A stretch of DNA of 41,182 bases from Escherichia coli (GTDB lineage Bacteria; Pseudomonadota; Gammaproteobacteria; Enterobacterales; Enterobacteriaceae), in NCBI RefSeq assembly GCF_003334355.1, contig NZ_QOWP01000031.1; one strand, given 5' to 3'. The notes under the pieces are model-generated. The model did not search any database. It saw only the letters and a list, made by a program, of their open reading frames with translations, and had not been told where the DNA came from. A program made the translations under genes and the position numbers. Numbering within the stretch: the stretch's first letter is position 1; each line of letters opens with the position of its first letter. Below are positions 91-41,182 of the stretch, piece after piece.

Positions 91-948
91 TCAGCCTAAA
101 ACTGCCAGTTTTTCGAGCGTTTCGAAGCCGTAACGCTGTAAAACGGGCAATAATTGTTCAGCTCCTGGCGTCATTGCCATACAAAAGGCAATATTCGCAT
201 CGGCAGATTTTGCATCCGGGGCTTCATGTTCTAACAACCAGGCCGTTCGGCGAGCAATCGCTGCGCCAGAATCCACCAGCCGGGTTCCCTCTGGCAGCAC
301 TTGTAACAGTTCTTCTTGTAGTAGAGGGAAATGGGTGCAACCCAATACAACGGTATCTGGCGGCTCTTTCATTCTTAACCACGGGCGTAGGATACGTTTT
401 AGTGCATCCAGAGAAACATCTTCGCCATGTAGCTTCGCTTCAGCCAACTCAACCATCTCTGCCGAGCCCAGCATTTCTATCTGGCATTCATTAGCGAAAC
501 GCGCGATCAGCTCATGAGTATAAGAACGTTTAACTGTTCCGCGGGTTGCCAGTAATCCGACAATGCCATTTGCCGTCAGACGTGCAGCAGGTTTAATCGC
601 CGGCACGACACCAACAACCGGGAAGTCGAACTTTTCGCGTAATGCAGGAAGTGAAACGGTACTGGCAGTGTTGCAAGCGACCACAGCCAGCGCAAGGGGA
701 TAACGTTCTTGCACCGCGGTGACAATTGCCACCACTCGCTCAACAATAAACGCTTCGCTTTTTTCGCCATACGGGAAAGCGACGTTATCGAAAGCATAAA
801 TGTAATGGAGATCCGGTAAGAGATGCCGGATCTCGTCATAGACCGACAACCCACCGACGCCGGAGTCAAACACCAGCACGGTGGGACGTGGTTCAGAAGG
901 TGTAGCTGCCAGACAAGGTGTATTCCCGTCCTGCAGTTTGGTAGCCAT
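91..948 (-). CDS. murI: Glutamate racemase MurI
   Basis: ORF-track protein (289 aa) recognised as E. coli MurI; start trimmed to the internal Met (MATKLQDG...) giving 285 aa, the length I remember for K-12; ATG confirmed as cat at 946-948 on the plus strand. Confidence 0.9.
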
Positions 949-2737
949 AGACTGTCTCATAATCTTTGTCGAACAGGTTGGCTATTTTACCACGAACTGT
1001 CAGGTGAGAGGTGACCGGATACGCAACCGCAAGATCCCACAAGCTCACACCGCCCATTTTAACGGTTTGATAAGAATAAGATGAGTAATCCTTATCATAG
1101 CGAGTGCCTAAATACTGATAAGTAATACCCCAGTCGAAGTCATACAACTGCCAGTCGAGCTGGTATTTCACCTGCTGTTTAGCACGGCGTAACAACGGCG
1201 TGTCGGTAATCGCATTGCGCGCATCGACATAATCATAACTCACAGTATGCGTCAGTGGTCCGGTATCAAAATTGGCGGTCGCCTCGACGCCCTTAATCCG
1301 CGCTTTCCCTTCGTTGTAATATTTCAGAGTGTGATCATCATAATCGATCAAGTCACTGACATCGTTACGATATCCGGAAATACGCCAGTTCACCCCAGCG
1401 GTTAAGCCTTCAAACGCGCCTTCCCACTGTTTGCTTTTCTCCGGGTCCAGATTCGGATTTCCGTAGAAGCCATACAGTTGCCCCAGATTTGGTGCCTTAT
1501 AAGATGTCCCGTAGGAAGCAATGAAGCGATAACCTTCGATGAATTCCCAACCGGCGCTGGTTTGCCAGGTTCCATGACGACCAAACTGTGAGTTATCGTC
1601 ACTGCGTGCTGCGCCTTCAAAGGTAAAATCGCCGACTTGTTGCAGCCCGGTCAGATAGATGCCGGTATTACGTTGATCATATCCATCCTCAACATAACCT
1701 GTACCCGGCGTCGTAGTCTGTTTCTGCCAGTCGACACCCGCACCAATACTACCGTGACCAACGATGACATTGTTTGCCCACTGGACGGTGTATTGCTTCA
1801 TCTCATCGAGCGTCGCCGACGAATCATAACGACCATAATGGGGATCGTAGTTGTAATCTTTGCTATGGCTATAGCTGGTAATGAGTTGTGATTTAATCAG
1901 TTCGCCGTTATAGCGCAGCCCGGCGTCCCAACTTTGGCTATAGAGTTTACGGGTATCGAGCAACGGTGAACCGGGAGAATAATACGCGTCATAATTGGTA
2001 CGGTTATCATAGCCATAGCCGCGCACAAAGCCGCTCCAGGCATCAGTAAAGTTATGCTCCAGCGCGCCATAAAGCGTTTTACTTAAAAAACCATCGTTAT
2101 CTGTCTGCGCTTGCGTTCCGGTATTACCATAGGCAACAACATCATAACCATGAGTATGGGCATAATCGCCCAACAGCGTTACCCGTGTCTTATCCCCCAG
2201 TTGTTGCTGCGTAGAGACATCATAGTTCTGATAACTATTGCTTCCCCACCCTGCTGAAATTTCCGTTCCGGGTTCATCGCGCGTCGTGATGATATTCACC
2301 ACCCCGCCTATTGCATCGGAACCATAAACAGCGGAGCGCGGCCCACGGATATATTCAACACGCTGGACAAGCGCAATAGGGAACTGGCTAAGGTCGGCAG
2401 AACCACTCACCCCCGCCAGATTCAGGCGTACGCCATCAATTAACACCAACACATGACTGGCATTTGTACCGCGAATAAAAATAGATGAGAGCTGACCTGA
2501 ACCGCCGTTTTGGGTGATATCGACGCCCGGAAGACGGCGCAGCACATCATTGACCGAGGTCGACTGCCAGCGGTCGATATCCTGACGGGTCACAACGGTG
2601 GTTGGTGCAAGCACAGTGCTGCGCGGCTGTTCAAAACGGTTAGCAGTAACGACGAGAGTATCCGGGCTGGTATCCTGTGCCCAAGCGGAAAATGCCGTGA
2701 CGGAACACGCCGTCAGCAGCGAAGCTTTTTTAATCAT
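893..2737 (-). CDS. btuB: TonB-dependent outer-membrane vitamin B12 transporter BtuB
   Basis: 629-aa ORF contains the BtuB sequence starting [10 protein letters not shown] (signal peptide, TonB box DTLVVTA, C-terminal beta-barrel ending in F); start set at the internal Met (614 aa). The 3' end overlaps the murI start by 56 bp. Confidence 0.92.
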
Positions 2738-2977
2738 TGTAAAGCATCCACAATAGAAGAAGGATGCCGCAGGTTTCATCAATATTACGCGATGATGAGA
2801 ACCAGATGCGACGTTGGCCGGCAGGTCTTCGGGCTTGGAGGGGTATCTAAGATACTAAGAGATGATGACTTCCCACCGGATGGCAGTGTCCGCATAACGC
2901 AATCATCGCACCTTTCCTTACCGCTGCGCGTCAGCTCCAGATTCGCACTGGATTCCCTATTAACTCACAGGACCGGC
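2738..2977 (-). promoter_or_regulatory. Cobalamin (B12) riboswitch in the btuB 5' leader
   Basis: Roughly 240-nt untranslated leader directly upstream of the btuB ATG; minus-strand sequence GCCGGTCCTGTGAGTTAATAGGGAATCCAGTGCGAAT... and the B12-box-like GAAGACCTGCCGGCC (plus-strand 2811-2835) match the btuB leader as I remember it. The 5' boundary is approximate. Confidence 0.75.
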
Positions 2978-3105
2978 AAGTGGATGCTACAGGTTGTAAC
3001 AAGTTACTGTCCAGACGTAGCTCACAAATAGGAATTCATCAAGATCTGGACATCTGATGAGCAATCCCTACAATCGCCGCGTACTTTAATTTTTCAGGAT
3101 ACATC

Positions 3106-4206
3106 ATGACCCCCGAACACCTTCCAACAGAACAGTATGAAGCGCAGTTAGCCGAAAAAGTGGTACGTTTGCAAAGTATGATGGCACCGTTTTCTGACCT
3201 GGTTCCGGAAGTGTTTCGCTCGCCGGTCAGTCATTACCGGATGCGCGCGGAGTTCCGCATCTGGCACGATGGCGATGACCTGTATCACATCATTTTCGAT
3301 CAACAAACCAAAAGCCGCATCCGCGTGGATAGCTTCCCCGCCGCCAGTGAACTTATCAACCAGTTGATGACGGCGATGATTGCGGGTGTGCGTAATAATC
3401 CCGTTCTGCGCCACAAGTTGTTCCAGATTGATTACCTCACTACGCTGAGTAATCAGGCGGTGGTTTCCCTGCTATACCATAAGAAGCTGGATGATGAGTG
3501 GCGTCAGGAAGCGGAGGCCCTGCGCGATGCACTGCGCGCGCAGAATCTGAATGTGCATCTGATTGGTCGGGCAACGAAAACCAAAATCGAGCTGGATCAG
3601 GATTACATCGATGAACGTCTGCCGGTCGCAGGGAAAGAGATGATCTACCGTCAGGTAGAAAACAGCTTTACCCAGCCGAACGCGGCGATGAATATTCAGA
3701 TGCTGGAATGGGCGCTGGACGTAACCAAAGGCTCAAAAGGCGATTTACTGGAGCTGTACTGCGGCAACGGTAACTTTTCATTAGCGCTGGCGCGCAATTT
3801 TGATCGGGTATTAGCCACCGAAATCGCTAAGCCGTCGGTTGCTGCTGCGCAATACAACATCGCAGCTAACCATATTGATAACGTACAAATTATTCGTATG
3901 GCGGCAGAAGAATTTACTCAGGCGATGAATGGTGTGCGCGAGTTTAACCGCCTGCAAGGGATCGACTTAAAGAGTTATCAGTGCGAAACCATTTTTGTCG
4001 ACCCACCGCGCAGCGGTCTGGACAGTGAAACCGAGAAAATGGTGCAGGCGTATCCGCGTATTTTGTACATCTCCTGTAACCCGGAAACGTTATGCAAGAA
4101 TCTGGAAACATTAAGCCAGACGCACAAGGTCGAACGTCTGGCTCTGTTTGATCAGTTCCCCTACACGCACCATATGGAGTGCGGCGTATTACTGACCGCG
4201 AAGTAA
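3106..4206 (+). CDS. trmA: tRNA (uracil54-C5)-methyltransferase TrmA
   Basis: 366-aa ORF, full-length match to the remembered TrmA sequence ([18 protein letters not shown]...). Confidence 0.92.
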
Positions 4207-38989: not shown

Positions 38990-39262
38990 ATGGTCACAGT
39001 TAACCTTCATTGCCCCCGTTGCCAGTCCGTTCAGGTTTACCGTCACGGGCAGAACCCAAAAAGACATGATCGATTCCGCGGCCGTGACTGTCACCGGGTA
39101 TTTCAGCTCAGTTACTGTTACGAGCCCCGTAAACCGGGAGTTAAAGACCAAATCGCTGAAATGACTTTCAACGGTGCCGGGGTTCGCGATACTGCCCGTA
39201 CGCTGAAAATCGGCATTAATACAGTCATCCGAACTTTAAAAAACTCTCGCCACGAAGAATAA
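38990..39262 (+). CDS. insA: IS1 InsA-like protein (zinc-finger / HTH transposition regulator)
   Basis: 90-aa ORF MVTVNLHCPRCQSVQVYRHGQNPKRHDRFRGRDCHRVFQ... with CxxC...CxxxC zinc-finger-like spacing and a C-terminal HTH-like segment (ARTLKIGINTVIRTLKN); similar to remembered canonical InsA at roughly half the positions. Confidence 0.75.
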   Translation: MVTVNLHCPRCQSVQVYRHGQNPKRHDRFRGRDCHRVFQLSYCYEPRKPGVKDQIAEMTFNGAGVRDTARTLKIGINTVIRTLKNSRHEE

Positions 39263-39696
39263 CGTCATCCCCGGTCGCTCATGCTGATGTGGCACTCATC
39301 TGCAAACTTAGTCAGCAATGGAGCTTTGTCGGCAGTAAAGCGCGACAGCACTGGTTCTGGTACGTGTACAACACGAAAACTGGTGGTGTTCTGGCCTACA
39401 CTTTTGGCCCCCGGACTGACGAAACCTGTCGTGAATTGCGGGCGCTGCTTACCCTTTTACCATCGGCATGTTGACCACTGACGAATGGGGTAGTTACGCT
39501 AGAGAGTTACCGAAGGAGAAGCATCTGACTGGTAAGATTTTTACTCAGCACATTGAGCGTAACAATCTGACCCTGAGAACCCGAATCAAACGTCTGGCCC
39601 GCAGAACCATCTGTTTCTCGCGTTCTGTAGAACTTCATGAAAAAGTCATCGGTGCTTTTATCGAAAATATATGTTCTACTAATTGGAGTCATCACC
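39240..39696 (+). pseudogene. insB: IS1 insB-like transposase gene, interrupted by a frameshift
   Basis: InsB-like sequence is split across two frames: 39289-39474 (...QWSFVGSKARQHWFWYVYNTKTGGVLAYTFGPRTDETCRELRALLTLLP) and 39468 onward (MLTTDEWGSYARELPKEKHLTGKIFTQHIERNNLTLRTRIKRLARRTICFSRSVELHEKVIGAF...), with the shift near 39445-39450; the second frame has no stop before the right inverted repeat. Confidence 0.55.
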
Positions 39697-39837
39697 CTTC
39701 TGATAAGCTTTCCTTGGATGATTACCAGACTGAATACACAGCCAAAGATTTTTACCTCATTCTGCTCTTTTTTCTCAAATGACATATATTATATTTTACA
39801 TCATATTCATAGGCATATGACATTCCCCCGCCCCCCA

Positions 39838-40074
39838 TTATGTCATTGTGGGTTGATGTTGGGCTTTCATAAAAAAAACATCTTTTTTTGAACTAGCATT
39901 AATTATATTTACTTTATATATTAAAATATTTTCTCCATCTGGAAATATTTTAGCCACACAATATAAAGCAGCTGAATCCGAATTACTGAAAAATATATTA
40001 TCATCACCCATAACTCCAGCCATTAAATGACTGGAGACTAAAGCAAGGAAATAACAACATTGTATTGCCTTCAT
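39838..40074 (-). CDS. Candidate Rhs immunity protein (78 aa, signal-peptide-like N-terminus)
   Basis: ATG 1 nt after the Rhs TAA stop (minus strand GGGAGTAATTAAAATGAAGGCA, with GGGAG as a Shine-Dalgarno-like sequence); MKAIQCCYFLALVSSHLMAGVMGDD... The ORF track's longer 90-aa version starts inside the rhs gene. Very AT-rich. Role inferred from position immediately 3' of an Rhs C-terminal domain. Confidence 0.55.
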   Translation of the reverse strand: MKAIQCCYFLALVSSHLMAGVMGDDNIFFSNSDSAALYCVAKIFPDGENILIYKVNIINASSKKDVFFMKAQHQPTMT

Positions 40075-40075
40075 T

Positions 40076-41182
40076 TTAATTACTCCCTTGCCTGATAATT
40101 GTAACTCCATTCCCTTTAGCTTTGGGATTATATTTTAGATAGGTGTTATTTGGTGTTCCCAAGTAACTACTGTATTCTTTTTTTCCCATTCCATTCATAT
40201 AAGAATTCGTTAAATCTTTGCTTGAAAAATTTAGACTATCATAAACATCATTTTCTTTTGTTACTTTATTTCCTTTATCGTCAGAGTAAAAACCGTGAGT
40301 GTGATAATCGCCTACTCTCTCTGAACCTTCAGGGCATTTTATATTTCGCAAGTCTACACTATCATTATCATTTGAACTTATCGGATTCATGGGGAAATAT
40401 TCACCTTGCTTCTTACATATTAGTCCACCATATTCTTTATTCTCGTTAATTGATTCTCCATTACACATTGCCAATGCAAATATTCCAATATCATCTATAT
40501 TTTTTGATTTAAATTCATATAATCCTAATGGATCCATGCTATTCACCGGGCTCAGCGGATATGTATACAGGTTCCATCCCCCCTTCAGCCCAATCGGATC
40601 CTGAGTGATATACCTCCCCCGCAGCGGGTCATAATAGCGGTGGCGGTTATAATACAGGCCGGACTCCTCATCATACTGCTGCCCCGGCAGGCGGATGAGC
40701 TGCTGCAGCTGGTGCGGGTTCTCTTCATTCAGCTGGTTACCCCATTCATCGTATTCCCGGCGTATTTCCAGCCAGTCAGGCCCGGTGGCTGACGTTAACT
40801 GGCTGTGGTGGTTATAGTAAAACGCCGATGCCCTGCCATCCGGCGTGGTGATGCGCGTGATGAGGCCCGTCACCACATCCGGGCTGTATTCTGTTGTCCT
40901 GCCTGCGGCATCCGTCTGTGCCCTGAGCCTGCCCACCGCGTCAAACTGACTCTGCGTGACGCTGCCGTCCGCGTGTTCCTTTTTCACCACCCGCTTCAGC
41001 CCGCCTTCGCCTGCGGTATGCAGGACTTCACGGCGGTTCAGGCTGTCGGTGATGGTGATGCGGTCCTTCTCATACTGATACGTGTAGCTTAAGCCTGCCG
41101 GGTTTAGCTGTTCTGTCACCCGCCCGTCGCTGTCGTAACGGTAACGGATTTCCGGCCGGCCCGTGTGACGGTGCGCCACCAT
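40076..41182 (-). CDS. Rhs-family polymorphic toxin, 3' portion (YD-repeat core end + DPxGL + 147-aa variable C-terminal domain); 5' end lies beyond the window
   Basis: ORF is open to the window edge; translation contains YD-repeat core sequence and the core-terminal motif ...[39 protein letters not shown], followed by a 147-aa AT-rich tail ([10 protein letters not shown]...RQGSN). Stop at 40076-40078. Confidence 0.85.

Follow-up and report, generated by a model that had tools for sequence, protein, structure and literature searches.

Putative periplasmic immunity to a JAMM-fold Rhs toxin in Escherichia coli: the signal-peptide-like N-terminus of dsORF-f3 and a frameshifted allele of its gene

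In which cell compartment does the toxin at the tip of an Escherichia coli Rhs element act, and what can the small gene directly behind it reveal about this? The question is raised here by a 41,182-nt stretch of E. coli DNA (contig NZ_QOWP01000031.1, assembly GCF_003334355.1; hereafter, the window), near one end of which an open reading frame (ORF) of 78 codons (39838..40074, minus strand) lies next to the 3' end of an rhs gene. This ORF is an allele of dsORF-f3 (WP_001323627.1), the downstream ORF of the E. coli RhsF element, with which it shares gene, start codon, rpmE-yiiX locus and 99.7% of its DNA sequence, and from which it differs in having a run of eight T residues (T8) instead of nine (T9) and a product of 78 instead of 107 residues. 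The reading that we consider probable as a whole is that dsORF-f3 would encode a periplasmic inhibitor with a cystatin/NTF2-like fold, directed against an envelope-acting JAMM peptidase, and that the window holds a frameshift-truncated allele of it within an RhsF-type PAAR-Rhs module.

The initial annotation had taken the small ORF for the immunity partner of the C-terminal toxin of rhs, and both adjacency and co-varying homologues bear this out. The ORF is separated from the rhs stop codon by a 1-nt gap and, at loci encoding toxins 54-72% identical to that of the window, the downstream ORF is a homologue of 31-50% identity, supporting the assignment of dsORF-f3 as the putative cognate immunity gene of the RhsF-type PAAR-Rhs toxin. 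The start codon proposed in that annotation, 12 codons below the one in the ORF list, likewise proved the better choice. The list gives a 90-aa ORF at 39838..40110 (minus strand), the 13th codon of which is an ATG (40074-40072); the 78-aa ORF read from this codon occupies exactly 39838-40074 and begins MKAIQCCYFLALVSSHLMAGVMGDD. The ATG lies one base beyond the TAA of rhs (40078-40076), and a GGGAG that reads as a good Shine-Dalgarno sequence (40083..40087, minus strand), within the last rhs codons, precedes it by 8 nt. The RefSeq protein WP_001323627.1 begins MKAIQCC, matching this ATG, and at all homologous loci the gene starts either 1 nt past the toxin stop or in an ATGA overlap with it. 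Because homologous loci, RefSeq and Shine-Dalgarno spacing agree, the ATG at 40074 is preferred. The upstream ATG at 40110 was rejected: an AGGGA abuts the codon directly, which is poor spacing, RefSeq does not use it, and it would place 12 additional residues ahead of the hydrophobic segment. On its 3' side the ORF ends at 39838 through the frameshift and not at the native stop.

The part of the protein that bears most directly on the question is its N-terminus (residues 1-23; 40006..40074, minus strand), for which a likeness to signal peptides had been noted initially. Its n-region, MK, contributes a single basic residue, K2 (+1/-0), and is followed by an uncharged run of 21 residues (3-23) that opens with the h-region, AIQCCYFLALV. 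The maximum of the Kyte-Doolittle average over eight residues, 2.51 at residue 6 (core CCYFLALV), falls within the range of 2.25-3.2 spanned by the signal peptides of OmpA, PhoA, MalE, Bla and Lpp. Three candidate cleavage sites follow the -3/-1 rule, VSS/H (15), LMA/G (19) and VMG/D (23), the last two in the c-region, with acidic residues coming after them, and homologues carry LMA/E, SLS/G and AFG/G at the equivalent position. As a control, the same simple rule was applied to 27 long ORFs of the window, of which three pass, all of them encoding envelope proteins, YiiX among them. Another ORF of the window (893-2779, minus strand) has a typical signal peptide that is hidden by a first-ATG start lying upstream, and the simple rule therefore depends on correct start codons. 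A lipoprotein reading of E. coli dsORF-f3 was considered and dropped, given that no lipobox ([LVI][ASTVI][GAS]C) is present at the end of the h-region, where LMAG is followed by V instead of C. Overall layout, hydropathy range, ORF control and conservation among homologues concur in confirming that the N-terminus is signal-peptide-like.

Such an arrangement might also serve as an uncleaved signal anchor, which would export the immunity domain and tether it to the inner membrane on the periplasmic side, as in some colicin and type VI secretion system (T6SS) immunity proteins. The ambiguity of the cleavage site lends some weight to this alternative, as do the long h-regions of a few homologues (our labels L013, P0063 and L022), for which the apparent free energy of insertion is close to zero (-0.6, +0.3 and +1.0, respectively), and the existence of one lipoprotein among the homologues of Imm-NTF2-2, the other immunity family found beside these toxins, by which membrane attachment is seen to occur in the system. 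The E. coli h-region, however, has only 8-10 strongly hydrophobic residues, and the Hessa scale (literature values), summed over the best 19 consecutive residues, gives about +4 kcal/mol; judged by its composition, the segment is too polar and too short for a stable membrane anchor. Small residues at -3 and -1 recur, moreover, at the equivalent position in most homologues, and we regard the anchor as unlikely.

The layout of the N-terminus recurs beyond what chance would give. About ten homologues at 17-50% identity keep the tripartite layout, whereas the N-terminal sequence itself is not conserved. All nine enterobacterial dsORF-f3 members (that of E. coli, L003, L004, L005, P0063, P0071, L007, L008 and P0085) are signal-like, and so is a betaproteobacterial relative from Acidovorax (L010); in these ten a -3/-1 site falls near residue 18-24, and the n-region is basic in all but the Rahnella member (L007), with most homologues at +1 to +3. 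The Imm-NTF2-2 partners of other DUF4329 toxins are signal-like in five cases out of five, one of them with a lipobox (ILFAC); they lie downstream of Rhs tips in E. coli (including RhsB/YhhH of K-12), Salmonella and Phytobacter, and upstream of the toxin in Scandinavium (L041). In the latter, the called start of the downstream ORF (L041:3271-3501) omits an in-frame extension, MKGTLLFMILASFVCCSS, that would give a signal-like or lipobox-like N-terminus. P0085 of Salmonella enterica (344 aa) is annotated as a single fused ORF comprising the toxin and its signal-bearing immunity protein.

The same comparison argues against the long-standing view of these toxins. The family was named Tox-JAB-2 by Zhang et al. 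2012 (PMC3482391), who also proposed a nuclease role for JAB toxins, and a ribonuclease (RNase) label has been repeated since; our literature search found no experiment behind either label. Under that view dsORF-f3 would be a cytoplasmic immunity protein and the hydrophobicity of its N-terminus either incidental or part of the fold. Against it stand a layout that is conserved while the sequence drifts and two sequence-unrelated immunity families of enterobacterial DUF4329 toxins that both carry signals. In the AlphaFold2 model, furthermore, the helix formed by residues 2-21 is separate and modelled with less confidence, and signal-less homologues start shortly ahead of helix 2; the first helix is therefore not part of the conserved fold and appears dispensable for it. 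Since the best structural matches of the toxin are also isopeptidases, as detailed below, a cytoplasmic protein facing a nuclease seems to us very unlikely in the case of dsORF-f3.

Export of dsORF-f3 is nevertheless a reading with several points against it, which are best considered together. The cleavage site is ambiguous between VSS/H, LMA/G and VMG/D, the h-region, which a single basic residue precedes, is interrupted by Q, S, S and H, and the call for export is itself drawn from the layout of the sequence. In the family at large, the approximately 34 downstream ORFs surveyed include at least 10, all non-enterobacterial, that lack a hydrophobic N-terminus and plainly belong to this immunity superfamily. 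Their sources are Burkholderia, Duganella, Acinetobacter, Zophobihabitans, Methylumidiphilus and a number of metagenome-assembled genomes (MAGs) of Acidobacteriota, Planctomycetota and Myxococcota, and they imply that some Tox-JAB-2 toxins must be neutralised in the cytoplasm. A survey of Salmonella also gives "no TM/signal peptide" (TM, transmembrane) for the partners of DUF4329 effectors, in which the ORFs scored are not identifiable (PMC10469887). Outside the Enterobacteriaceae about 15 loci are signal-like. The initial claim that export implies action of the toxin at the envelope is thus strengthened for the enterobacterial relatives and the Imm-NTF2-2 partners, but was overstated as a general rule, given the lineages that lack a signal: as far as N-termini can tell, export is a property of enterobacterial clades and not of the whole toxin family. 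Speculatively, signal-bearing and signal-less partners could be brought into agreement by a substrate found on either side of the membrane, peptidoglycan precursors for instance.

The toxin itself (40076..40519, minus strand) comprises the 147 C-terminal residues of Rhs beyond the DPLGL cleavage motif and matches Pfam DUF4329 (PF14220; E 2.3e-15, residues 235-355), which is the Tox-JAB-2 domain referred to above. It has the JAB/MPN (deaminase-like) fold, with the JAMM (MPN+) motif made up of a glutamate (KEYGG), HTH, and the serine and aspartate of FSSKD; these residues are invariant in 16 diverse sequences and occur in 33-35 of the 35 toxins compared across loci. The toxin is accordingly read as a metal-dependent JAMM domain, and the Cys-His hydrolase that had been suggested initially is not supported. 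Its best structural matches are isopeptidases, as stated, and a sequence search of the Protein Data Bank (PDB) with the toxin profile returned nothing meaningful. Two cysteines, in LICKK (~40415-40417, minus strand) and KCPEG (~40334-40336, minus strand), co-vary perfectly: both are present in 12 of the toxins from the 35 loci and neither in the other 23, and all 12 toxins with the pair belong to loci with a signal-bearing immunity protein. The co-varying pair probably forms a disulfide, which would fit an oxidising compartment, although the case for it is one of co-variation and not of adjacency of the two residues in three dimensions.

The published record on this toxin is complicated by nomenclature. 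The locus studied here is "RhsB z5488" in PMC7216683, where the tip was modelled on the proteasome lid and the RNase label kept, while the "RhsF/RhsFI" pair of recent enterohaemorrhagic E. coli (EHEC) papers is ECs0604-5 / z0704-5, another locus with a nuclease-like toxin (PMC7618764, PMC7216683). A 2025 Nucleic Acids Research paper on "RhsFI", which seemed to describe a cytoplasmic RNA-binding immunity protein for the present toxin, was set aside on these grounds: it concerns ECs0604, a different locus with a different toxin, and the coincidence is one of names. Our literature search found no published assay of a Zn-dependent hydrolase activity or of a substrate for Tox-JAB-2, and a 2024 preprint states that both activity and substrate are not known.

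The fold of the immunity protein is congruent with a peptidase as its target. The AlphaFold model of the 107-aa protein (predicted local distance difference test score, 85) shows a helix (2-21), a loop, a second helix (31-43) and four strands (53-59, 63-70, 84-92 and 97-106), and the mature part is best read from this model as a cystatin/NTF2-like domain of 85 residues, with a single helix and a sheet of four strands. Its likeness is to cystatins, PepSY domains and M4/M36 propeptides, all of them protease-inhibitor folds. The family is without a model of its own: no Pfam or NCBIfam match was obtained for the 78-, 90- or 107-aa forms, a word-indexed search across 5.8 billion proteins brought up nothing beyond variants and fragments from E. 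coli, and an exhaustive phmmer search of 1.84 billion representatives yielded just five truly divergent members (29-52% identity, 100-131 aa). Relatives were therefore also sought through the toxin, using six closer toxin sequences as queries against one genome per species, which provided 29 loci, to which five fetched individually were added; the scan is biased to matches of VG[DVI]YHTHG or E[YF]GGL[IV]C. Nearly all downstream ORFs at these loci present an optional hydrophobic N-terminus, a helix, two strands, an (R)G.G loop and two further strands, and a core-family profile links the ORFs of Acidovorax, Superficieibacter and Rahnella at E <1e-8 and three more at E <1e-3. In MAGs of Acidobacteriota, Myxococcota, Planctomycetota and related groups, this domain is duplicated in tandem within the immunity protein (170-194 aa), with a hydrophobic N-terminus in L013, L020 and possibly L019 and none in L015, L016 and L018, so that localisation seems to vary within a single subfamily.

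A further property of these proteins suggests how the inhibitor may work. The last residue is Arg or Lys in 23 of the 25 immunity proteins examined in an alignment of L001, L003-L005 and L007-L032, and K-12 YhhH, which lies outside that alignment, also ends in Lys; this suggests that the C-terminal basic residue may plug the JAMM active site as a product mimic. Combining these elements, we envisage that translation of dsORF-f3 would be coupled to the rhs stop, that the protein would be exported by Sec and its signal peptide (approximately residues 1-19 or 1-23) cleaved, releasing it into the periplasm or possibly leaving it anchored, and that there it would bind and block the JAMM toxin injected by the type VI secretion of neighbours, the full-length carrier of which has a PAAR N-terminus. 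Since a periplasmic immunity protein points to a periplasmic substrate, and this in turn to the cutting of a peptide or isopeptide bond and not of nucleic acid, the substrate would most plausibly lie in peptidoglycan or its attachments. In its most specific form, which we offer tentatively and think rather less probable than its being wrong, the proposal is that Tox-JAB-2 Rhs toxins are periplasm-acting JAMM isopeptidases cutting an envelope bond (the peptidoglycan stem or cross-link, or the lipoprotein-peptidoglycan link) and are blocked by exported cystatin-like proteins that insert their near-invariant C-terminal Arg/Lys into the zinc site.

The allele in the window departs from this scheme in a precise way. 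Alignment with E. coli ATCC 8739 reveals one T fewer on the coding strand, T8 in place of T9, at 39871..39878 (minus strand). The intact T9 gene encodes 107 residues ending in FFYESPTSTHNDIMGGGGMSYAYEYDVKYNICHLRKKSRMR, whereas the window product leaves the native sequence after residue 68 and reaches a stop ten codons on; the last 39 native residues are thus replaced by 10 unrelated ones (MKAQHQPTMT), with the loss of half the sheet and of the conserved C-terminal Arg. The native C-terminal coding sequence persists out of frame at 39752..39874 (minus strand), where it reads FYESPTSTHNDIMGGGGMSYAYEYDVKYNICHLRKKSRMR* and includes the conserved GGGG loop, strands 3 and 4 and the terminal Arg. Homologues beside toxins 72%, 72% and 54% identical (from Enterobacter, a JGI metagenome and Salmonella, respectively) retain a C-terminus of the form YES...GGGG..Y.Y..D...C.L..K..M[RK], and the 107-aa form is therefore ancestral. 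According to the AlphaFold2 model, the window allele ends within strand 2, without strands 3 and 4, and its product is unlikely to fold; because two conserved beta-strands and the C-terminal Arg are missing, the allele is probably non-functional. The lesion is not private to the window, as the identical allele is flagged as frameshifted by the NCBI Prokaryotic Genome Annotation Pipeline (PGAP) in strains STEC276 and E2865, and among the 2084 of 5426 complete E. coli genomes that carry this part of the gene, the exact T8 allele is found in 561 and the exact T9 allele in 785.

The abundance of both alleles in complete genomes could indicate that T8 is still alive, with slippage of RNA polymerase or ribosome on A7-GAUG-U8 restoring the frame in a fraction of the products and turning the gene into a leaky or phase-variable immunity switch. 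In enterobacteria, slippage is well documented on runs of about nine A or T; the window keeps the C-terminal codons undamaged, though out of frame; and in E2865 an intact full-length rhsF coexists with the T8 immunity gene it adjoins. Eight U, however, fall short of the length for efficient slippage, and homologues do not share the run. Nor does the situation in E2865 call for a rescue, given that an intact toxin without immunity would be tolerable, and not self-toxic, if its target were periplasmic. A functional T8 allele is accordingly a distinctly unlikely alternative to plain loss of function. The converse arrangement is seen in strain 120899, in which an rhsF with an internal stop lies beside an intact immunity gene.

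The carrier is damaged as well. The 3' part of the rhs core, with its RHS/YD repeats, occupies 40520..41182 (minus strand), where it leaves the window. Comparison by blastn with the full-length, 1394-aa PAAR-Rhs protein RhsF of E2865 shows that the window rhs joins nucleotide 1478 to 3505 across a 17-bp repeat (junction at 40740..40756, minus strand), so that 2026 bp of the cocoon-encoding core are gone; the deletion, between 17-bp direct repeats, is described as in-frame. This deleted form occurs in only 46 of the 5426 complete genomes, and full-length forms of RhsF, which are PAAR-Rhs elements, exist in other strains. The window rhs retains the DPLGL autocleavage motif and is not an intact full-length carrier. 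With both the immunity gene and the rhs carrier damaged, the toxin-immunity module is decaying in this strain, which probably neither fires nor resists the toxin.

The surroundings of the module are those of an E. coli chromosome segment, in which the order at the end of the window is metF-metL-metB-metJ-yiiX, a frameshifted IS1, dsORF-f3 and the 3' end of rhs. The equivalent locus of RefSeq genomes lies between yiiX and rpmE, the small ORF being annotated there as "RHS element protein dsORF-f3", a name that we take to go back to the Rhs work of C. W. Hill, and the gene upstream of it as an RHS core protein with a DUF4329 tip. The IS1-family transposase (38990..39682, plus strand), assigned from the annotation of equivalent loci and the ORFs, marks the yiiX-side boundary of the Rhs element and lies outside the toxin-immunity module; it sits, frameshifted, between yiiX and dsORF-f3 in all the genomes inspected (ATCC 8739, STEC276, E2865 and 120899) and represents an insertion of long standing that has become fixed at the border of the element. 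One strain (H1, H15 type) has an extra IS1A. A scan for promoters and terminators around dsORF-f3 gave results no better than those for shuffled sequences. Finally, a 2.2-kb contig attributed to a "Lachnospiraceae bacterium" MAG (SFGN01000258.1) matches the RhsF tip plus intact dsORF-f3 of E. coli at 99% identity, and we are almost certain that it represents E. coli DNA wrongly binned with a Firmicutes MAG.

The gene dsORF-f3 is known, named and widespread, and its class follows from the paradigm of Rhs C-terminal toxins and their immunity proteins. The searchable literature yielded nothing on its function, localisation or structure, and searches on dsORF, on YhhH/RhsB and on Rhs with signal peptide and JAB returned no experimental work on this pair. 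Action of Tox-JAB-2 at the envelope likewise appears unstated in that literature, which would make the present reading modestly new. Two unrelated signal-bearing immunity families, together with the cysteine pair of the toxin, are in conflict with the annotation as nuclease or RNase and point to an envelope-targeting JAMM peptidase. If this were true, a common effector class would have to be reassigned, since Tox-JAB-2 Rhs toxins are present in more than one-third of complete E. coli genomes and in RhsB of K-12, the RhsB/YhhH pair included; they would also be the first enzymes of JAMM fold to work beyond the cytoplasm, and would constitute a new class of T6SS cell-wall effectors.

Comparison with known systems places dsORF-f3 close to, but not within, several of them. 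The nearest is Imm-NTF2-2 (PF15631; YhhH in K-12), which was assigned to Tox-JAB-2 by Zhang et al. 2012 (PMC3482391). Like dsORF-f3, it lies directly after a DUF4329 Rhs tip and has a signal-like or lipoprotein-like N-terminus, a GG ahead of the final hairpin and a basic residue at the C-terminus; its helix followed by a curved sheet (cystatin/NTF2-like) may be shared by dsORF-f3 as modelled. In contrast, dsORF-f3 has no Pfam hit in its 90- or 107-aa form, its superfamily aligns to YhhH in hhalign with a probability of 0.3%, and it is about 20 residues shorter and without the conserved Trp; it is thus not an Imm-NTF2-2 protein by sequence, though it probably works like one. A broader analogy is offered by Tsi1, Tsi3, Tai and Tli, small proteins encoded beside their effectors that have an N-terminal Sec or lipoprotein signal and are presumed to act by periplasmic neutralisation in sister cells, Tai3 being cited as an example of periplasmic T6SS immunity in PMC7216683. 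Their effectors, however, are amidases, muramidases and lipases, mostly not encapsulated by Rhs, while that of dsORF-f3 is a predicted JAMM domain at an Rhs tip. Zhang et al. 2012 (PMC3482391) record a signal peptide and a lipoprotein character for Imm65, the immunity protein of the sister family Tox-JAB-1, which provides a precedent for pairing a JAB-fold Rhs toxin with exported immunity; in contrast to dsORF-f3, Imm65 is a lipoprotein, comes from a different sequence family and is confined to Bacteroidetes. On the toxin side, the JAMM/MPN+ isopeptidases BRCC36, Rpn11, AMSH, archaeal JAMM1 and Cap3 of the cyclic-oligonucleotide-based antiphage signalling system (CBASS) are all cytoplasmic and act on ubiquitin-like C-termini, unlike the toxin as read here, which also differs from them in a longer, variable spacer from HxH to S..D and in its clade-specific cysteine pair.
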